DNA of 64,000 bases. It comes from an uncultured Candidatus Saccharibacteria bacterium (GTDB lineage Bacteria; Patescibacteriota; Saccharimonadia; Saccharimonadales; JAGQNJ01). Below the pieces are notes generated by a model. It worked only from the letters and a program-made list of their open reading frames with translations, made no database searches and had not been told where the DNA came from. Position 1 is the stretch's first letter. Each line of letters starts with the position of its first letter. The position numbers were made by a program, and so were the translations under genes. Positions 2,807 to 53,773 of this stretch are shown one piece after another. The DNA lies in assembly GCA_964504275.1 (NCBI GenBank), contig CAZDDV010000002.1, positions 12,822 to 76,821 on the forward strand, read 5' to 3'.

Positions 2807-4098
2807 CTAGCGAACTTTTTGCGGAGCCATTCGTCGAGGCTGTTGCCACCACCACCGGCCATACCGATTACCATGTCGCCGGCTTTTAAATGTTCTTGAA
2901 CTTTCACTTTTAGTTTTTCGTCGCGATCCATGGGCACGGCGATTGTTGGATCGCTCAGATGTTCGATCATCTCTGATGGTTTAATAATACGTTGATCAGG
3001 ATCTTCGCGAGCTAAATAACTTGGCAGCCAATACAATTTTTTGGCGCCGGCAAAACAATCTTTGTATTCATCGATCATAAAATGCTGGCGACGATTATGT
3101 AGTGGTTCAAAAACTACCACAACGTCTTGGCCTTTTTCTTGGGCGAGTTCTAGTGCAGCGCTCATGCAACCGCGAACTTTTTCTGGCGTGTGCGCGTAGT
3201 CGCTGAACAAATTGGGATAAATTTCTTCCATACGGCGTTGCAGGCCCGGAAATTTATTTACCAGTTCTGTTAGTTTCACAATCGGCGCATTTGTAACTTC
3301 GTGCACTGCCTGGATCGCCAACCACGCATCGAGCCGATTGTATTTGCCCAAGATTTTTACACCTTCTTGGTCTGGCTCGGCCGCGTCAAGCACCGACAAA
3401 TGCGTCGAATCGCTCAGGCCCAAATACTCGTGATCTTCTTGCCAGATAAATGTCCAGCTGCTTTGCGAAATAAATTCTTTAAAAGCTTCTTGGTAATCTT
3501 CGCGGGTGGGGAAGATCTCGTGGTGATCCCAACTAACACCGGTAATTAAACTTAAATGCGGGTTAAAGGCTAAAAAGTTTCGGTCGAACTCATCGCACTC
3601 ATACACAAAGTATTCTGATTCTTTATTAAATTCGCCCATTTCGCCGTAACTTGTTTTGGCTGGCAAAATGTAGCTAATTGGAACTTCAAGTTGTTTGAAA
3701 AGCCACACGGTCATGGCAGTCGTTGTGGTTTTGCCGTGCGTACCGGCAATGGCGATCATTTTTTGTTTGGTGTCAGTCAGGATTTGGTTTAAAAATTCGT
3801 CGCGTTTAGAAAACTTAATGTTTTGTGCGCGGGCAAATAAAATTTCGGGGTGATTTGGGTTTTCTTTTTCGACAGCAGACGAAAACACAATCCAATCAAT
3901 TGGCTTTTTGGAGTGCAGCTCAGCAATTGCCTCTGAGGTTTGCCCGATGTGAATATTCGTAATGCCGTGCTTTTTTAAATAATCGGTGTATCCTGAGTTT
4001 TGCTTGTCCGAGCCCGAAACGTCGTAGCCAGCAGCCTTGGCAATTTGCGCCAGCGGCCCAACCCCAGTTCCACCAATTCCACTAATAAAAATATGCAT
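2803..4098 (-). CDS. Mur ligase family protein (MurC/Mpl-like)
   Basis: 431 aa. N-terminal Rossmann motif GIGGTGVGPLAQIAKAAGYDVSGSD and P-loop IAGTHGKTTTTAM. Confidence 0.7.
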   Translation of the reverse strand: MHIFISGIGGTGVGPLAQIAKAAGYDVSGSDKQNSGYTDYLKKHGITNIHIGQTSEAIAELHSKKPIDWIVFSSAVEKENPNHPEILFARAQNIKFSKRDEFLNQILTDTKQKMIAIAGTHGKTTTTAMTVWLFKQLEVPISYILPAKTSYGEMGEFNKESEYFVYECDEFDRNFLAFNPHLSLITGVSWDHHEIFPTREDYQEAFKEFISQSSWTFIWQEDHEYLGLSDSTHLSVLDAAEPDQEGVKILGKYNRLDAWLAIQAVHEVTNAPIVKLTELVNKFPGLQRRMEEIYPNLFSDYAHTPEKVRGCMSAALELAQEKGQDVVVVFEPLHNRRQHFMIDEYKDCFAGAKKLYWLPSYLAREDPDQRIIKPSEMIEHLSDPTIAVPMDRDEKLKVKVQEHLKAGDMVIGMAGGGGNSLDEWLRKKFAS

Positions 4099-4140: not shown

Positions 4141-4752
4141 ATGGCAAACAAACAATATTTGCGTCATGTCTGGAAAACCCTCAAGCCAATTAACGAGTGG
4201 CTGTTGCTGGCGTTATTTGTCGTGTTTGCGCTTATTGCGGCGTTTGCGCTTCGCCAGAATAATCTGCTAGCAATTGAGCTTCGTGATCAAGTGAGCGAAG
4301 TCGACAAGCAAAATGGCGATGTCGAAGTCGCTCTGCGTAACCTGCGAGCTCACGTCTACACACATATGAACGCTAATCTTTCGAGCGGTACGGGAATACA
4401 GTATCCGGTGCAACTAAAATATCGCTACGAGCGTTTAGTCGCGGCAGAAAAAAAGCGCGTCGACTCTGCAAACGGTAGCATTTATACTAAGGCACAGAAA
4501 TATTGCGAACGTAAATTTCCAGCAAGCAGTTCCGGCGGACCCCGCGTACCTTGTATAGCAGAATACGTAACCAAAAACGGCGAGAAACAGAAGAATATCC
4601 CAGATGATCTCTATAAATTTGATTTTGTGTCGCCGGTTTGGTCGCCAGATTTGGCAGGTTTTAGTATTTTGCTGTCAGGATTATTCTTGGTGCTATTTTT
4701 GCTGCGATTTGCAATGGATCGCTGGCTCAGTTACGAACTCAACGAAGACTAG
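4141..4752 (+). CDS. hypothetical membrane protein (N- and C-terminal TM helices)
   Basis: 203-aa ORF with hydrophobic segments at both ends and a terminator downstream. Confidence 0.5.
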   Translation: MANKQYLRHVWKTLKPINEWLLLALFVVFALIAAFALRQNNLLAIELRDQVSEVDKQNGDVEVALRNLRAHVYTHMNANLSSGTGIQYPVQLKYRYERLVAAEKKRVDSANGSIYTKAQKYCERKFPASSSGGPRVPCIAEYVTKNGEKQKNIPDDLYKFDFVSPVWSPDLAGFSILLSGLFLVLFLLRFAMDRWLSYELNED

Positions 4753-12486: not shown

Positions 12487-12679
12487 GTTGGATTAGTGGA
12501 TAGGTTCAACGCTCTTTACCTTACGGATACTTAGTACCGCCAACTCTGTTTTGTACTCACTTGCGAAGCCTCTTTGAGCTGTAACGACCACCCGGGCAAA
12601 GGGTTCTCAATCAGACACTCCACGACAGCCTCCAAAGGTTCAAAAGTCTTCGCTTTATCGCCACCAAAAGTGGCTTACG

Positions 12680-12723
12680 CGGACCACGACCATCTCGAGA
12701 TGGTCGTGGTCCGTTTGTTTCTT
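12680..12723 (+). terminator. GC-rich hairpin plus T-tract (orphan terminator inside the island)
   Basis: Perfect 15-bp stem CGGACCACGACCATC/GATGGTCGTGGTCCG followed by TTTGTTTCTT. There is no intact upstream gene. Confidence 0.5.
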
Positions 12724-13201
12724 CAGTGAGATTGCCAGAACCCGGCAGTTTTCCAGCCAGAAAAGTAGACTTACGCCCCGCGGAATTCCAAGCAGGTCCG
12801 CAACATCTCGAGGATCTCGTCGAGTTTCGTCTCAGTCTGCTCTCAGTCGTTGGTGCGGGCCGCTACGAACGCGTTATTATTCTAAGGACAAGGATGTTTG
12901 CCAGCTCCTCGTCGCCCTGACTCGTACTCGCAAGAGTTGCAACCTCGTCTCCACGCGCAGGCCCGGGGACCAAGCTAGTATTGATGTTCCGGCAGAAGAC
13001 GAAGACGCCGAATGGGCCGCGCTGAAAGCTGCGCTTTAGACATATTTTTAAGTGCGTCAATACTACGAGGTCTGAAGGCAAGATCTTCCATTTTTTAAAG
13101 CTGCCTGCAAATGCTATAATAACTGTAATGAAGCAAGTTTGGGTGCATGCTATTATCTCTCTGAATAAACGGTTATATATTCGTGGCTGGAGTCATGTCT
13201 A

Positions 13202-14257
13202 ATGAGCCGTCTCCCAACCCCAGGTAGTGATAATGGCACCTGGGGTGATGTGCTCAACGACTTCTTGAGTGTGTCTTTGGATGACGATGGCTCACTGCAA
13301 GACGACGCCGTTGGCCCCGGCGCACTAGCGGACGGCTCGGTCACCCAAGCCAAGATCGCCGATGGCACGCTCACTGACGTTCAGATTGATACCGCCAACA
13401 TTGATGGCACTTCCAGCACCCCGAGCTTGCGTACCCTTGGCACCGGCTCGACACAAGCGGCTGCCGGTGACGATGCTCGCATTACGGGCGCGCTACAAGC
13501 CAGTAACAACCTCAGCGAAGTTGCTGCAAGTGCGTCGACAAGCCGAACGAACTTGGGCCTGGCAGCGATTGCCGCCTCTGGCTCAGCGGCTGACCTGTCT
13601 GGCACCAAGACGCATACGTTCATCTCGGATTTTGACGCTGAAGCTGTGTCGGCTGGGGCTGGAACGTATGCACTACTCGCAACGGCAGGCGAGCTCATCA
13701 ACGGGCAGAACGGTGGCAACTCGTCGATCGTCCCTGTCTACAACCGGCGACACATTATGTCGTCGGACCAGACCACCAGCTCGGGCTCGTGCTACTTCAC
13801 CTACTTCGTTTCACCCGTCAACCGCACCATCTCAAACCTCGGCTATCCGAGCGCTACGACTACGGCGAGTTCAGGTCTGACAATCTGTCGATTCGGGCTG
13901 TACACCGTCGACCAGGCGACAGGTGACGTCACCCTCGTGGCCCGTACGGCGAGCGACACGACCGTCTTCAATACGCTCAACACCGAGTACACACGGGCTC
14001 TTGACGCGACGGGCGGCTACCCGGCCAGCTACAGCCTAGTTGCCGGTACCGAGTACGCCCTGTCCGTAACTCAGGTCGGCACCACAACCGCTCGGCTCTG
14101 GTGTCTCTCTGTCACCAATGCCGTGATCACGGGTGGATCCGGTCGCAGAGAGGCGAGCCTCTTGAGCGCCCAAGCCGACCTGCCCACCGGAACGACGACC
14201 GCAGTAACACTCGGGAACGCAACCGCGAAGGTGTTCTACGGCTTCTGCAAGGTCTGA
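13202..14257 (+). CDS. tail-fibre-like / receptor-binding-like protein of high-GC origin
   Basis: 351 aa with GC-rich third codon positions. It opens MSRLPTPGSDNGTWGDVLNDFLSVSLDDDGSL, followed by an Ala/Ser/Thr/Gly-rich region and a C-terminal domain. GGAG RBS, with TATAAT at 13115-13120. Confidence 0.6.
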   Translation: MSRLPTPGSDNGTWGDVLNDFLSVSLDDDGSLQDDAVGPGALADGSVTQAKIADGTLTDVQIDTANIDGTSSTPSLRTLGTGSTQAAAGDDARITGALQASNNLSEVAASASTSRTNLGLAAIAASGSAADLSGTKTHTFISDFDAEAVSAGAGTYALLATAGELINGQNGGNSSIVPVYNRRHIMSSDQTTSSGSCYFTYFVSPVNRTISNLGYPSATTTASSGLTICRFGLYTVDQATGDVTLVARTASDTTVFNTLNTEYTRALDATGGYPASYSLVAGTEYALSVTQVGTTTARLWCLSVTNAVITGGSGRREASLLSAQADLPTGTTTAVTLGNATAKVFYGFCKV

Positions 14258-14546
14258 GCAACCGACGCATTCAGACGGAAAGGACCGCACTACGAAATCA
14301 CTGATCTATGAACGCAACCGAGTTCGACCCACCACGTCAGAATTGACGTGCAGCCAAATTCAAAAAGCGGTGGACAAGGAGCGCTTTTTTATTTGGCCTT
14401 CGTTATTCTTTCTCTACCCCAAAAAAAACAGGCTTTGCGGGGACCCCAAACATATGGTTCACACAACAAGGCCACGCGCAGGAATGTTTTCCGAGCATGG
14501 CTGCAGCTTTTGCGTCCTATCCACCCCCTCGCTTCTGTTATAATTT

Positions 14547-15014
14547 ATGCTAATAATGCTTCAAAAAATAAAAAATAAAGTTCCAGAATATGTAAAACTG
14601 CTGTCTGATGTGCGCGTGCTCGGGCAGATTGTGTTTGTGGTGATTGTGTTACTGGTCAGCTGGAGCGGGGTAAAGGCGATTCAAACAAATTTTGAGCTGC
14701 AAAAAAAGATCGTAAAACTCGAGCAAGAAGTGGCCATTGCCGAGTTAGAAAACCAAAACTTGAGTTTGCAAAATCAGTACTTAGAAACCGATCAGTTTTT
14801 GGAACTCGCCGCCCGCAAACAATTTGGTAAAGCCGCCAGGGGCGAAAAGGTTTATTTAGTGCCGCAAGAGGTTGCGCTCAAACATGCACCTGCAGCGATG
14901 GAGCAAAAAACCGTCGGCGAAAAAAAGGCTGACAAGCCAAAATACCAGCAAAACCTGGAGGCGTGGGTAAACTTCTTCTTCCGCAACTCCGACAACAAAC
15001 TCCTCAGCAGCTAG
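14547..15014 (+). CDS. ftsB: septum formation initiator (FtsB/DivIC family)
   Basis: 155 aa with an N-terminal TM helix and the coiled coil QTNFELQKKIVKLEQEVAIAELENQNLSLQNQYLETDQFLELAARKQFG. Confidence 0.75.
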   Translation: MLIMLQKIKNKVPEYVKLLSDVRVLGQIVFVVIVLLVSWSGVKAIQTNFELQKKIVKLEQEVAIAELENQNLSLQNQYLETDQFLELAARKQFGKAARGEKVYLVPQEVALKHAPAAMEQKTVGEKKADKPKYQQNLEAWVNFFFRNSDNKLLSS

Positions 15015-15018
15015 TGTT

Positions 15019-15499
15019 ATCATTTTTTTCCAACAAACCCAGTGTTACTTTTGTTTTCGAACAAAAGTAACCAAAAACCATCACTGGACGGTTGCTCAAT
15101 CTTGAGGAAACTGTTGTCTAAAACAGGCTTGCTGTGGAACTCACAAGAAAGGAGCCATCGAGCTCCTTTCTTGCTCAAACAGTCCTCGCACTCAAAGGCG
15201 CCTCTTTTACACAACAGTTTCATCAGGATCTCACAAAGCCCAGACTTAGCTGCCTCCGACGAAGTCGGAGTAGTAATAATCTGCTTTGCAGATGCTGCTA
15301 AGGTGAGGCTCAGCAACACCGAAATAAAATATTCCCGTTTTGCTGAGTCAAGCCAAAAGTCAAGTCTGAAGCAAGCAAAAAAGAAATGGCGAAAGACCGA
15401 CCAAAGGGAGTCCTTTTGGCGCGGCAAAACGGGGATATTTTATTATCGCGTGGCTTCGGTCGCCTCGAAGTTTTAGCGTACCTTTTTAAAAAGGTACGG
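15019..15499 (+). other. hairpin-dense non-coding block, candidate structured RNA or decayed element (unassigned)
   Basis: Perfect 12-bp hairpins at 15044-15071 and 15144-15173. A 7-bp hairpin at 15254-15270. An 11-bp long-range pair between 15107-15117 and 15211-15221. A 21-bp helix between 15323-15343 and 15424-15444 that encloses an 8-bp helix (15352-15359 with 15413-15420). A 20-nt palindrome at 15478-15497. Confidence 0.3.
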
Positions 15500-15583
15500 A
15501 GCTAGTGTTTGTTTGAAACAAAAAGTAAAGAGTAGTGAATTCTTATTCTGTGAAAATATAATAGAAGTAATACTTCCCGGTAT

Positions 15584-15612
15584 TTGACAAAACTACCTCT
15601 GTTTGGTAGGAT
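15584..15612 (+). promoter_or_regulatory. candidate sigma70-type promoter of tRNA-fMet
   Basis: TTGACA-N17-TAGGAT, ending 27 nt upstream of the tRNA. Confidence 0.4.
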
Positions 15613-15639
15613 TACTTAGCTTCACTTTTAAGCAGATAT

Positions 15640-15714
15640 CGCGGGATGGAGCAGCGGCAGCTCGCGTGGCTCATAACCACGAGGTCCCAGGTTCGAGTCC
15701 TGGTCCCGCAACCA
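15640..15714 (+). tRNA. initiator tRNA-fMet (CAU)
   Basis: Acceptor CGCGGGA/TCCCGCA with the C1xA72 mismatch. D arm GAGC-AGCGGCA-GCTC, anticodon arm CGTGG-CTCATAA-CCACG, T arm CCAGG-TTCGAGT-CCTGG, and an encoded ACCA. Confidence 0.9.
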
Positions 15715-15723
15715 AAACAAACG

Positions 15724-15749
15724 CCCAACTTCGGTTGGGTTTTTGTTTT
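15724..15749 (+). terminator. rho-independent terminator after tRNA-fMet
   Basis: CCCAAC-TTCG-GTTGGG followed by TTTTTGTTTT. Confidence 0.6.
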
Positions 15750-15778
15750 GGTTGGGCCAAGCCTCGAACCTGGGACGC
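15750..15778 (-). repeat. inverted degenerate copy of the tRNA-fMet T-arm and 3' half
   Basis: The minus strand reads GCGTCCCAGGTTCGAGGCTTGGCCCAACC; the tRNA reads AGGTCCCAGGTTCGAGTCCTGGTCCCGCAACC. Confidence 0.55.
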
Positions 15779-15864
15779 AGATTTGCTTTAGTAAATATGC
15801 AAGTCCCCGGTTCGGTCGTTAGTCACAAGCCCCAGCGAAGCGGGCGCTTGGATTAATGTGCGCT

Positions 15865-15883
15865 GTCCTGGTCCCGCAACCAA
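15865..15883 (+). repeat. exact 19-nt direct copy of the tRNA-fMet 3' end (att-like scar)
   Basis: GTCCTGGTCCCGCAACCAA is identical to 15697-15715. Confidence 0.85.
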
Positions 15884-15895
15884 GTTGCATAACAA

Positions 15896-15928
15896 ATAGA
15901 GATTCACATTGTGTGAATCTCTATTTTT
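15896..15928 (+). terminator. rho-independent terminator following the duplicated tRNA end
   Basis: 13-bp stem ATAGAGATTCACA/TGTGAATCTCTAT followed by TTTT. Confidence 0.6.
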
Positions 15929-15984
15929 AGTACCCCTGTTATTTAGGTTCCAATGTTGCTTGGTCTCTGGTATGATATGGGTAA

Positions 15985-16845
15985 ATGAACTGGACTTTTT
16001 ACAGCTTGATGATGTTCTTTTCTTCTGTCGCACTATACCTTACTGTGCGAAAAGCATCGCTTCTAAAAACACCGAGTTATCTGACGAACCTGGCCATGTT
16101 CGCCATACCGCTAATTGCATATGTTGCGCTAGGTGTCATGACGAAAACACCCCTTGGCATTTCTTGGTGGCAAGCAGTTATTCTGATTTTTACAGCATGC
16201 GTATTTGCTTACGGGGGCAATAAGGCATCGCTTATCGCTTTTAGTAAAGCGCCAAACCCGGGCTATAGCTTAGTCTTATCTAAAAGTTACGTATTGTTCA
16301 CGACACTCGTTGCCGTAACACTTCTTGGCGCAGAACTTTCAGCTCAAAAGGCATTGGCGATTCTCATGATTGTTGGATTTTCAGTACTCATTTTAGTGAA
16401 TAAAAAAGGTGCGAAGAAAGTTAAAGACGAAAGATGGGTCTTGCTATCTTTCGCAGCTTTCTTTGCATGGGGAATGTTATCACTTGGCTCGAAGTACTTA
16501 TTTAACAATGGCGTCGATACTGTCGTATTTCTTATTTACCTATACGCGATTGTAACTATTTGCATCGTTTCTTTTGATAAAGTGCGCATCTCAAAATTTA
16601 AAGAGATATCTACTCAAATGAAGTTACTTCTAGTTGGCGTCGGCGTGTTCTCTGCTTTGTTTAATTTTGGTCAGTTTCAGGCCATCAAGCTGGCGCCAAA
16701 TATAGGCTAGGTCAATGCAGTCAATGCGGCTTCAATCTCAATGGTGACAGTTTTTGCCGTAATCTTGTTTAAAGATGAACTGACCGTAAAAAAAGCTATC
16801 GGTATTGCTGGTGCCACCATTGGCCTCATGTTGCTACTTGTCTAG
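15985..16845 (+). pseudogene. EamA/DMT-family transporter interrupted by an in-frame TAG
   Basis: The track ORF ends at the TAG at 16708-16710. The same frame continues for 44 codons (VNAVNAASISMVTVFAVILFKDELTVKKAIGIAGATIGLMLLLV) to the TAG at 16843-16845, which completes the last EamA helices. Confidence 0.7.
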
Positions 16846-20519: not shown

Positions 20520-20585
20520 ATAACGTATTGTGTGAACCCCGAACAAAAGTAATCTTTTGTGCGGAAGAGGAGAAAGCACGGAGAT

Positions 20586-20626
20586 CAAACTAAAAAAGCG
20601 CTACTTGTTTGCGCTTTTTTAGTTTG
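20586..20626. terminator. bidirectional terminator (16-bp inverted repeat)
   Basis: CAAACTAAAAAAGCGC ... GCGCTTTTTTAGTTTG between a plus-strand ORF and a minus-strand tRNA. Confidence 0.6.
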
Positions 20627-20645
20627 ATTGAAGGGAATTTCGACG

Positions 20646-20722
20646 TGGTAGCGGTGACTGGATTTGAACCAGTGACCTCAGGCTTATGAGTCCTGCGCTC
20701 TAACCAACTGAGCTACACCGCC
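20646..20722 (-). tRNA. tRNA with CAU anticodon (probably elongator Met; Ile2 not excluded)
   Basis: Reverse complement folds as GGCGGTG-TA-GCTC-AGTTGGTTA-GAGC-G-CAGGA-CTCATAA-GCCTG-AGGTC-ACTGG-TTCAAAT-CCAGT-CACCGCT-A-CCA. Confidence 0.85.
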
Positions 20723-20831
20723 ACGATATAATTGTAATAGGTACGTTCGCATTGCGAAATTGGTTACAGCTAGATGTTTTTTGTTGGTTAGTGCTTACTC
20801 GCGATTATTATTTTTTTCGCCTTCGGCTTGG

Positions 20832-20850
20832 CCAACTGAGCTACACCGCC
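20832..20850 (-). repeat. exact 19-nt copy of the 5' end of the tRNA at 20646-20722
   Basis: CCAACTGAGCTACACCGCC is identical to 20704-20722. There is no cloverleaf around it. Confidence 0.8.
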
Positions 20851-20891
20851 GCGTCAGCGTTAGCTTGCTAACTTACCGCTACGCTTCCTTG

Positions 20892-52062: not shown

Positions 52063-52156
52063 TTTTTCGGGGTAAGCAAAAGAATTTTGTTGACAGCAAT
52101 TTTTTTGCGTGTATAGTCATCGGCATTAAGCAATGAAAGTCCAAAAAGGAGGCATC

Positions 52157-53773
52157 ATGAGCTTTTATTTTTTTACCCCAAAATTCGCAGTACGAATTTT
52201 TATCGCAGCGCTTTCGCTAGCGATTTTTTTAAACGGTTTGTTGCCCGGCTTTGCTTTTGCAGATACACAAAGTCTTGTTATTAATGAAGTTCAAACCGGA
52301 GGCATTGGCACCGGAAACGCGGGCCAAGAATTTATCGAACTAAAAAATACCAGTGCGGAATCCACAAATGTTTCCGGCTGGAAAGTCGTCTATTCGTCTA
52401 GTACTGACGCATCGAAATACACAATCGTCGAACTGCAAGGCGAAGTTATCGCGGGAGGTTTTGTGTTGCTCGTTTCCAACTCGTATCTTGTGCCTGGTGG
52501 CGTCACGCCCGATCTTTTGTTTGCATATAACAGCGGGATGTCAGGAGTTGGTGGTCACATCAAACTTGTCGACAATTTGAACCAGGAGCGCGATCGATTA
52601 GGTTGGGGGAGTGCGCAATTCGCCGAAACACTACCTGCTTTAGCGCCAGATCCAGGGAAATCTTTGCAGCGCGAAGGGGAAGATAGCGACGATAATTCAA
52701 AAGATTTTTTGGTGGACAGTCCAACGCCAAGTGGCGGGGATTTAAAACCAGTCACAGAACCAGAACCCGAGCCTGAACCAGAACCAACCGAATATTTGCC
52801 GATTACAATTACCGAACTTTTGCCCGATCCGGCCAGCCCAAAACTTGATAGCGAAGATGAATTCATAGAATTATATAACCCAAACGACGAAGCAGTATTA
52901 TTAAAAGATTATGTATTGCAAACCGGCAGTAGTTTCCAGTATTCGTATAAATTGCCGGCGTTTAGTATTGAGCCCAAAAAATACATGGCGCTGTATTCGA
53001 GCGAAACAAACTTGACCCTAAGTAACACTTCCAGTAAAGCAAGAATCAGTGACCCAAACGGCAAAATTTTATTTACGACGGATGAGTATAATTCGGTTAC
53101 CGAAAATAACGCGTGGGGATTGTTCGATGAATCGTGGCAGGCGACAAATCAACCCACGCCCGCCAGCGCCAACAAAGCGAGTAGCATCGAACAAGAAATT
53201 GTAGAATCAGAAAATGACGAAGAAGGTCCTGTGCCCTGCCCGGCTGGCAAGTTTCGAAACCCCGCCACAAACAGATGTAAAATGATTGATTCAGAATCCG
53301 GGCTAAAACCCTGCAATCCTGATCAGTTTAGAAATCCAGAAACCAATCGATGTAAAAAAATTGAAACTTCCAATGGTCTGCTGCCTTGCTTGGCTGGACA
53401 ATATCGTAACCCTGAAACTAACCGGTGCCGCGCAACCGCGAGTGCGAGCTCTGTTTTGAAACCCTGCAATCCCGATCAAGTGCGCAACCCGGCTACAAAT
53501 CGTTGCAAAAAGAAAGATTCAGACTCTGATCTCAAACCATGTGCCGCCGGGCAAGAACGAAACCCTGATACAAATCGTTGCCGAAAAGTTGCTGGTGTGT
53601 CAACAACAAATCCGCTTGCCACCCCCGCCGCTGCAGCAACGACAAAAACTAGTGTTAGCTACCCGGCAATGATTGCTGTTGCGGCATTGGCAGTTGGATA
53701 CGGCGTGTTTGAATATCGTCAAGAAATAAAGCGGCGCGTGCTAAAAATATTTTCTAAATCTTCGTCTAAATAA
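52157..53773 (+). CDS. surface protein with two lamin-tail domains, five Cys-bracketed repeats and a C-terminal TM anchor
   Basis: AAAGGAGG then the ATG at 52157. Signal peptide ..GFAFA, LTD motifs LVINEVQTGG..EFIELKN and ITELLPDP..EFIELYN, and a PEPEPEPEP linker. TTGACA-N16-TATAGT lies at 52090-52117. Confidence 0.7.
   Translation: MSFYFFTPKFAVRIFIAALSLAIFLNGLLPGFAFADTQSLVINEVQTGGIGTGNAGQEFIELKNTSAESTNVSGWKVVYSSSTDASKYTIVELQGEVIAGGFVLLVSNSYLVPGGVTPDLLFAYNSGMSGVGGHIKLVDNLNQERDRLGWGSAQFAETLPALAPDPGKSLQREGEDSDDNSKDFLVDSPTPSGGDLKPVTEPEPEPEPEPTEYLPITITELLPDPASPKLDSEDEFIELYNPNDEAVLLKDYVLQTGSSFQYSYKLPAFSIEPKKYMALYSSETNLTLSNTSSKARISDPNGKILFTTDEYNSVTENNAWGLFDESWQATNQPTPASANKASSIEQEIVESENDEEGPVPCPAGKFRNPATNRCKMIDSESGLKPCNPDQFRNPETNRCKKIETSNGLLPCLAGQYRNPETNRCRATASASSVLKPCNPDQVRNPATNRCKKKDSDSDLKPCAAGQERNPDTNRCRKVAGVSTTNPLATPAAAATTKTSVSYPAMIAVAALAVGYGVFEYRQEIKRRVLKIFSKSSSK
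53237..53587 (+). repeat. five tandem ~25-aa coding repeats C-x3-[QK]-x-RNP-x-TNRC-[KR]
   Basis: CPAGKFRNPATNRCK, CNPDQFRNPETNRCK, CLAGQYRNPETNRCR, CNPDQVRNPATNRCK, CAAGQERNPDTNRCR. Confidence 0.8.

Follow-up and report, generated by a model that had tools for sequence, protein, structure and literature searches.

We examined a 64-kb window of DNA, the whole stretch that was analysed, in which a block densely packed with hairpins lies between ftsB and a tRNA gene. Upstream of the block is a plus-strand ftsB/DivIC gene (14547..15014; Pfam PF04977, E 4e-9) with homologues in metagenome-assembled genomes (MAGs) of Saccharibacteria. Searches based on FtsB return Saccharibacteria MAGs only, and the window is from the genome of a tiny, parasitic Saccharibacteria (TM7) bacterium. 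Downstream is a plus-strand tRNA-Met(CAT)/fMet gene (15640-15714), whose first acceptor pair is flagged as non-standard in the Rfam alignment, and which is preceded by a sigma-70-like promoter, TTGACA-17-TAGGAT (15584-15612, plus strand), that is conserved in the related locus L001 (loci and contigs retrieved for comparison carry L numbers). The block is located between the ftsB stop codon (TAG, 15012-15014) and this promoter, in agreement with the placement between ftsB and tRNA-fMet that had been made from the sequence alone; promoter and tRNA gene are both outside it. We treat the block as copy 1 of a dispersed, non-coding repeat unit of ~510 nt, at 15019..15530 on neither strand in particular, with ends that are uncertain by about ±10 nt and a left end that lies 4-10 nt downstream of the ftsB stop codon. 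This extent is spanned by homology to a copy 2 (L021, L022 and L025) and a copy 3 (L024), and nhmmer places the unit's match in the window at 15031-15516.

The block is exceptionally structured. The minimum free energy (MFE) of the plus strand of copy 1 is -184.5 kcal/mol, compared to -126.6±6.2 in shuffles (z -9.3), and the minus strand folds with a z of -10.0, so the unusual stability that was first noticed by inspection holds on both strands. In a 150-nt sliding scan of GC-regressed MFE over the entire window, most of the top-structured windows fall in 15000-16000. All of the helices listed in the sequence-only reading were found again, several of them as the cores of longer inverted repeats.

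The unit is organized as a series of domains within a long-range closing helix. Domain 1 (15039..15087, no strand assigned) does not differ between the copies (100% identity). It contains H1, a perfect 12-bp hairpin with a TTCG loop (15044-15055/15060-15071), inside a 5-bp outer helix (15039-15043/15083-15087). The closing helix, formed in the consensus folds of the copies by CAAAAACC at 15072..15079 and its partner at 15469..15476, encloses domains 2-4; its 8 pairs (helix 3) are paired in 96.9% of cells across copies. Domain 2 (15088..15241) is a long imperfect hairpin, the outer arms of which (15099-15128/15200-15229) are 93-100% identical between copies. These arms make up a 30-nt inverted repeat with 87% complementarity, and the 11-bp pair that had been recognized at 15107-15117/15211-15221 is its core. 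The domain 2 helix (helix 11) has 38 pairs, of which 98% are paired across copies; its 11-bp core has two adjacent mismatches in the allele of L021 and is a less secure helix. Within domain 2 lies a variable module, the perfect 12-bp hairpin I6 (15144-15155/15162-15173, spanning 15144..15173).

Domain 3 (15245..15302) combines a conserved 7-bp hairpin (15254-15260/15264-15270) with a small variable hairpin, hp4 (ATCTGC TTT GCAGAT, 15279-15293). Copy 1 also has the pair 15245-15256/15291-15302; the enclosing helix of this domain, 15245-15253/15294-15302, is shared by copies 1 and 3, missing from copy 2 and likewise less secure. Domain 4 (15304..15466) is a long hairpin of ~163 nt, with GAGGC (15304-15308) pairing with GCCTC (15462-15466) to close it. 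The core helix of this domain (15323-15343/15424-15444) is the centre of a 40-nt inverted repeat (15312-15351/15416-15455), and an 8-bp helix lies further in (15352-15359/15413-15420). Next comes H6, a perfect palindrome that proves to be 22 nt long (15477..15498) rather than the 20 nt reported initially; copies 2 and 3 retain the hairpin (helix 2) but differ in a pair and in the loop. At the right end is a degenerate hairpin (15503..15527) related to H1: 15045-15065 matches 15528-15508 at 86% over 21 nt, and the reverse complement of the right end of copy 3 has 17 bases identical with H1. With this H1-related hairpin, the unit has ends that resemble an inverted repeat. Both end hairpins are themselves palindromic, and H1 is subterminal, ~25 nt in from the left end. 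Self-comparison of the block gives almost only inverted matches, with internal hairpins that are mostly unrelated to one another. H1 has no other occurrence with ≤3 mismatches in the 64-kb window; a 13-nt match at 20540 is at chance level.

Does the block encode a protein? Two long open reading frames (ORFs), one of 144 aa on the plus strand and one of 135 aa on the minus strand, span it, and their third codon positions coincide, as they would for a gene with an antisense shadow ORF; the 144-aa ORF was moreover called by a gene caller. However, neither ORF has a Pfam domain, and among 5.8 billion proteins and 1.84 billion cluster representatives we find no homologues beyond the same locus, the one additional match in the representatives (P0122) being a low-complexity artefact. 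Both frames are broken in copies 2 and 3 by stop codons and a 1-nt length change, while downstream of the breaks the nucleotide sequence of the copies is still ~97% identical. Because the ORFs are broken in the other copies, we conclude that the unit is non-coding, as had been suspected from the ORFs' implausible sequences. The idea that the block is a degraded form of the DUF6325 and SHOCT genes present here in some relatives fares no better, as tblastn and blastn searches for DUF6325/SHOCT similarity are negative at both the protein and the DNA level. We regard a coding gene or its remnant as effectively refuted.

We also looked for the block among known RNA families and mobile elements. The full covariance-model scan that had been suggested (Rfam 15, 4227 families, which include RNase P, tmRNA, 6S, SRP, group I/II introns, ROOL, GOLLD, OLE, HEARO and T-box) yields five tRNA matches in the window at gathering thresholds and none in the block. 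At E ≤ 10, copies 1-3 on both strands give only chance-level microRNA and small RNA matches far below threshold. ARAGORN finds no tmRNA or extra tRNA inside the block. A minus-strand motif, AAGUCUGGGCU, looks by eye like CR-I of RNase P, but the partner sequence is on the wrong side, and none of the covariance models scores. A group II intron is rejected for want of a domain V-like hairpin and of an Rfam match. An array of the TIGR/CRISPR type or of integron attC sites would have regularly spaced direct repeats or conserved R/L boxes beside an associated protein gene. The block lacks spaced direct repeats; its sole direct match is between the first and last hairpins, both palindromes, and the genes adjoining the copies are ftsB, a tRNA, gltX and rplY rather than array-associated protein genes. 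Searches of phage and plasmid collections with the block (blastn) have no match, and eight exact or degenerate pattern scans of IMG/VR are all empty.

Further copies of the unit were uncovered in metagenomes. A scan with six degenerate DNA probes that were back-translated from the spurious 144-aa ORF, and hence with ORF-derived patterns only, matched the unit in this population only: the same locus twice, and two contigs (L021, L022) with a diverged copy 2. Copy 1 itself is found downstream of ftsB in the window and in L012-L015. Copy 2 is 76% identical to copy 1 overall and has no ftsB or tRNA nearby; it is located between the stop codon of a DUF4367-domain gene and a putative gltX promoter recognized by eye (L021, L022, L025). 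We considered a T-box leader of gltX for this copy, which is rejected since the putative gltX promoter lies between the unit and the start codon of the gene, and no tRNA-synthetase gene follows copy 1 or copy 3. The route to copy 3 was contig L020, one of the two same-locus matches, in which an rplY flank is fused to copy-1 sequence exactly at window position 15037; rplY then led to L023, which ends inside a shared segment, and to L024, which carries a distinct copy 3 just after rplY. All copies are 490-520 nt long, have an identical order of domains and are 64-76% identical overall, and the unit thus recurs as a whole at at least three intergenic loci. In each case it begins or ends about 4-25 nt from a stop codon, that of ftsB, rplY or the DUF4367-domain gene.

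Several observations suggest that the copies belong to one organism. Copies 2 and 3 come from the same microbial-mat samples as copy 1, and a single sample (3300020219) contains all three sites: L015 has copy 1, L025 has copy 2 and L023 the beginning of copy 3. The two ENA contigs are covered at 5.10 and 5.06, and the tetranucleotide profile of the flanks of L021 correlates with that of the window at 0.88, the top value among the compared loci. Based on this data, the copies most likely belong to one population and probably to one genome.

One tract of 108 nt is 100% identical between copies 1 and 3, and it accounts for the break of contig L023 as well as for the L020 join. The L020 join may be either an assembly chimera or a real recombinant. 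In L020 (ENA ORBV01014175), the sequence that flanks copy 3 at rplY is joined, at 2954-3000, to an internal part of copy 1 and with it to tRNA-fMet and a recombinase. A 14.2-kb JGI contig probably has the same join, being the longest contig for both the copy-1 ORF product and an rplY variant. MAGs of this organism may be misjoined at the rplY/copy-1 tract.

The unit is missing from the corresponding site in relatives. Over this region, contigs from the window's own population match it at 99.97-100% identity. After these, FtsB identity falls to ≤78% (75-78% for the nearest relatives), with no relative between that value and 100%, so there is no orthologous intergenic region at an intermediate distance. 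In 14 related Saccharibacteria loci that we fetched, the unit is absent beside ftsB and nhmmer finds it nowhere. Instead, the site after ftsB holds DUF6325 and SHOCT genes in L001 and L016 and other, unrelated genes in L017 and L018, and in L008 the tRNA-fMet promoter follows ftsB directly, with the tRNA 146 nt downstream of ftsB. Just past the ftsB stop codon of L001 there is a short stretch that resembles window positions 15551-15569, beyond the block, as fits an insertion of ~510 nt. Since relatives with FtsB identities of 75-78% lack the block at this site, the block is, judged from these comparisons, an insertion of ~510 nt relative to other Saccharibacteria.

The three copies are mosaics of one another. 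H1 with the closing strand is 100% identical in every pairwise comparison, and the outer arms of domain 2 are nearly so (93-97% between copies 1 and 2, 93-100% between 1 and 3, and 93% between 2 and 3). By contrast, three modules vary. In I6, copies 2 and 3 are alike (87-97%) and copy 1 differs from them (48% from copy 2, 45% from copy 3). In the linker with hp4, copies 1 and 3 are alike (94%) and copy 2 stands apart (38% in both comparisons). In domain 4, it is copies 1 and 2 that are closest (74%), with copy 3 at 46% and 42% from copies 1 and 2, respectively. Because I6, hp4 and domain 4 group the copies in three incompatible ways, the comparison indicates that modules were exchanged between copies by recombination. 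The alleles of copy 2 point in the same direction: they have eight differences in 2370 nt, seven of which are inside the unit, and three of these seven are the copy-3 state of I6, as gene conversion would give.

Despite this turnover, pairing is retained. In copies 2 and 3, I6 is a 13-bp hairpin of different sequence (CTAMTTTTYAGCC/GGCTAAAAAKTAG), and the change from CAAGAAAGGAGC/GCTCCTTTCTTG to CTACTTTTTAGCC/GGCTAAAAAGTAG rewrites the arms with pairing kept; 7 of the 14 pairs of I6 (helix 14) are changed on both sides and 100% are paired. Copy 2 has GTTCTGG AAAGT CCAGAAC in place of the ATCTGC/GCAGAT arms of hp4, again paired. In the 21-23 bp core of domain 4 (helix 6), ten pairs are changed on both sides, with many compensatory changes in copy 2. 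The domain 4 of copy 3 is of unrelated sequence and is still one long hairpin with the same GAGGC/GCCTC closure and nearly the same length (161 nt, versus 164 and 162 nt in the others). Over the four distinct sequences, 95.2% of cells are paired, and 22 pairs are changed on both sides, whereas column shuffles average 8.3±2.2, none of the 500 attaining 22, and slid controls with partners shifted by 1-3 columns give 5-7; as these counts come from three independent copies that exchange blocks, they overstate the number of independent events. All copies out-fold their shuffles, with z from -5.8 to -14.8. The stems are maintained by compensatory change and are not decaying.

Such a pattern raises the alternative that the unit is a new multi-domain structured non-coding RNA of ~500 nt, a small multigene family with one strand transcribed that acts in trans or as a ribonucleoprotein. 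According to this view, the conserved stretches are functional sites, while the variable hairpins are peripheral and need only to pair. The strong covariation is what such an RNA would leave, as are the multi-domain layout and long-range closing helix in all copies, the invariant or nearly invariant stretches beside wholly rewritten stems, and a domain 4 that holds its length and closing helix even with unrelated sequence; given the lack of any Rfam match, the class would be new. On the other hand, the exchange of blocks between copies means that part of the covariation is inherited or transferred rather than due to independent compensatory events. Perfect stems of 12-23 bp, and a set of allele differences of which 7 of 8 are in the unit, are unusual for a conserved RNA gene, and the unit occurs in one population only and is missing at the site in the nearest relatives. 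We find no conserved promoter (three copies inspected by eye) or intrinsic terminator within the unit; copy 1 has no promoter-like site and one weak terminator-like site, on the minus strand at 15093-15076.

Strand preference, which an RNA gene should show, does not settle the matter. The sequence-only reading had weakly favoured a plus-strand RNA from a single imperfection in the long helix of domain 4, a preference that disappears once all helices and copies are counted. In every copy, MFE is lower for the minus strand than for the plus strand, as is the consensus energy (-162.7 versus -126.7 kcal/mol), but the minus strand is U-rich, the z-scores relative to dinucleotide shuffles are equal on both strands, and we do not rely on MFE for a strand call because the advantage vanishes after dinucleotide shuffling. 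Read on the minus strand, the cells of domain 2, I6 and the 7-bp hairpin that depart from Watson-Crick pairing are G-U and never A-C, and among pairs predicted for both strands the count is 10 versus 3 in favour of the minus strand, in support of an RNA from that strand. The G-U pairs in domain 4 of copies 1 and 3 are, however, on the plus strand. Neither strand is clearly favoured, and the signals conflict between domains. Of the alternatives to a repeat element, we consider a structured RNA family the most probable, though on balance rather unlikely. More specifically, and as tentatively, the unit could belong to an unrecognized class of large (~500 nt) RNAs of Saccharibacteria, whose paralogues swap peripheral hairpin modules around a fixed conserved core made up of H1, domain 2's outer helix and junctions such as CACAAAGCCCAGACUUA. 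The proposal of a ~450-nt structured RNA of unrecognized class that was made from the sequence alone survives insofar as the stems are compensated and match no known family, and is weakened by the existence of at least three copies that behave as a repeat element.

The ends of the unit suggest a different alternative, namely that it is a palindrome-associated transposable element (PATE), a non-autonomous derivative of the IS200/IS605 type that is mobilized in trans by a Y1 (HUH) transposase through subterminal end hairpins. The related hairpins close to either end would serve this purpose, 17 bases being identical where H1 is compared to the right end of copy 3, and every insertion is intergenic. 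We find no target-site duplication common to the copies, as expected for the IS200/IS605 family. A 10-nt direct repeat, AGCTAGTGTT (15009..15018 and 15500..15509, plus strand), does occur in copy 1, where an equally long direct repeat arises in 10 of 2000 shuffles. Its right member is inside the region homologous between units, and copies 2 and 3 are flanked by no direct repeat longer than 6 nt and have no equivalent of AGCTAGTGTT. However, the left flanks (…TTATCA, …CAGCTTT and …CGATGT) have no common 4-5-nt target motif, we see no TnpA, TnpB or RAYT gene beside any copy, and this mechanism accounts for the end hairpins and not for the maintained internal domains. We consider a PATE improbable, and clearly less favoured than an RNA family.

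We propose, with a confidence that is about even, that the block is one copy of a dispersed, non-coding, modular and recombining repeat of ~510 nt in a Saccharibacteria population, similar to miniature inverted-repeat transposable elements (MITEs), bacterial interspersed mosaic elements (BIMEs) or enterobacterial repetitive intergenic consensus (ERIC) sequences. This is consistent with the dispersal of the unit, its absence in relatives, its mosaic copies, the assembly breaks and the H1-related hairpins at both ends. Both strands fold equally well, as expected of palindromic DNA repeats. The sequence-only reading had offered a stack of decayed MITE- or REP-like (repetitive extragenic palindromic) elements as its second option. 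The dispersed-repeat behaviour fits this option, while the recurrence of one ordered ~510-nt unit with maintained stems does not. The same reading held that many dispersed copies would reduce the block to a simple repeat element; what we find is a mild form of this, with at least three copies in different contexts, signs of recombination between them and absence from the orthologous site of relatives.

Several observations weigh against the repeat interpretation. That the three copies share one genome is something we infer. No further copy is present in the 64-kb window or in 76 kb of related loci, a low copy number for a MITE. The copies have no common target-site duplication, no clear inverted repeat at their extreme termini and no transposase linked to them. 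Dead transposon copies should decay, and here the internal stems and the length of domain 4 (161-164 nt) are kept. Long unpaired stretches are conserved at 93-100%, more like a functional RNA, and the architecture is one of several independent domains within a long-range closing helix rather than a single fold-back. Lastly, the orientation of the unit to the upstream gene differs, as ftsB and rplY read into the plus strand and the DUF4367-domain gene reads into the minus strand, which argues against a simple strand-specific role in 3' untranslated regions.

If the repeat interpretation holds, the unit would spread, or would once have spread, as a non-autonomous element, and its copies would swap modules via homologous recombination or gene conversion. 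The fold would be under selection because the unit must act as a single strand, which could be a transposition intermediate or part of the read-through transcript of the upstream gene. In such a transcript, the stacked and very stable hairpins might block 3' exonucleases or stop transcription, by analogy with REP/BIME and ERIC elements, which have been described as doing either.

Whichever interpretation applies, a multi-copy non-coding unit of 0.5 kb whose fold is preserved despite complete sequence turnover of whole stems implies that something selects for the fold. In the tiny, gene-dense genomes of Saccharibacteria and other candidate phyla radiation (CPR) bacteria, dispersed repeats and large non-coding RNAs are, to our knowledge, hardly documented, and a literature search for such repeats or large RNAs in these groups found nothing relevant. 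If mobile, the unit would be a new type of structured non-autonomous element and a source of rearrangement and of MAG assembly errors such as the L020 join and the L023 break. Were it an RNA gene family instead, it would join the small number of large RNAs whose function is unknown, as the first one specific to CPR bacteria. In either case, the three copies are a ready seed alignment for a covariance-model search.

The neighbourhood of the block has further features. The 3' end of tRNA-fMet, CCTGGTCCCGCAACCAA (~15698-15714), is directly repeated ~165 nt downstream (~15866-15882), and the interval contains the T-arm in inverted form (15754-15776) as well as a strong terminator hairpin; 15698-15883 is the most structured stretch of the entire window. 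L012 and L020, from the same species, diverge from the window exactly after 15715, where they have a large serine recombinase (Resolvase, Recombinase and Zn ribbon domains). Because of this divergence and the recombinase there, the 3' end of tRNA-fMet is, judging from these contigs, a strain-variable integration site, of which the window keeps only a remnant of ~150 nt. A similar duplication of a tRNA 3' end is found in L008 (3639-3836). In L001, the closest relative, immediately upstream of the true tRNA-fMet, there are two degenerate tandem copies of ~105 nt each (4290-4500) of the leader and the 5' part of the tRNA, which may have been left by repeated rounds of integration and excision, or else have arisen artificially in assembly.

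Other observations concern the window at large. Upstream of ftsB, positions 12487-14290 have a GC content of 50-56%, compared to ~44.8% for the genome; this segment includes 715 nt that contain ORFs of ≤72-73 aa only and a 34-nt perfect palindrome (12680-12713), followed by a 351-aa ORF (13202-14257) with no Pfam match. It is probably of foreign origin, having been inserted between ftsB and a gene for an EamA transporter. Elsewhere, in 20646-20853, the 5' part of a tRNA-Met on the minus strand (20704-20725) recurs at a distance of 128 nt (20832-20853, with 95% identity), possibly as another tRNA-associated integration scar, and an 18-bp perfect hairpin (20584-20628) lies beside this tRNA. Finally, ORF 52133-53773 contains three diverged copies (70-71%) of a 63-nt direct repeat at 53296-53586, spaced by 153 and 75 nt, that probably encode a repeated protein motif.

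Comparison with known systems shows where the unit resembles each and where it departs. The large ornate RNAs (ROOL, GOLLD, OLE, raiA) are hundreds of nucleotides long and have many covariation-supported helices, as does the unit. ROOL and GOLLD often adjoin tRNA genes and sit in mobile DNA; copy 1 adjoins tRNA-fMet, whose 3' end appears to be an integration site, whereas copies 2 and 3 are not near tRNAs. The unit further differs from this group in matching no Rfam model, in its unusually long and perfect stems and in having no clear strand asymmetry. With PATEs derived from IS200/IS605, it has in common the related subterminal hairpins and the lack of a target-site duplication and of an ORF; it differs in having no conserved target motif, no transposase nearby and more internal structure than the mechanism needs.

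MITEs such as the Neisseria Correia elements, pneumococcal RUP and BOX, and Bacillus bcr1 are short, dispersed elements without ORFs that have related ends, are structured when transcribed, and vary in their presence at a site between related genomes. Like them, the unit is short, dispersed and without a conserved ORF. It is ~510 nt long, where a MITE would be under ~600 bp and present in many copies; it was found at three sites, with no other in the window, and is absent at the ftsB site of relatives. Unlike MITEs, it has no common target-site duplication or extreme-terminal inverted repeat, its copy number is low, and its copies are 64-76% identical with compensated stems rather than near-identical and neutrally decaying.

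The ERIC sequences, also known as intergenic repeat units (IRUs), and the BIMEs of enterobacteria are non-coding, extragenic elements, often located just 3' of genes, that consist of imperfect palindromes folding on either strand. Their units measure 35-130 nt, and their copies number in the tens to hundreds. BIMEs have a modular, mosaic build, and both kinds are co-transcribed with their neighbours and thought to stabilize or terminate transcripts. The unit described here differs in being a single entity of ~510 nt with five or six ordered domains in at least three whole copies only. It also differs from REP/BIME clusters of alternating short palindromes, given that H1 is single in the 64-kb window and what is repeated is the unit as a whole. 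Like ERIC and BIME elements, it is non-coding, extragenic, close to the stop codons of genes, palindromic and mosaic.

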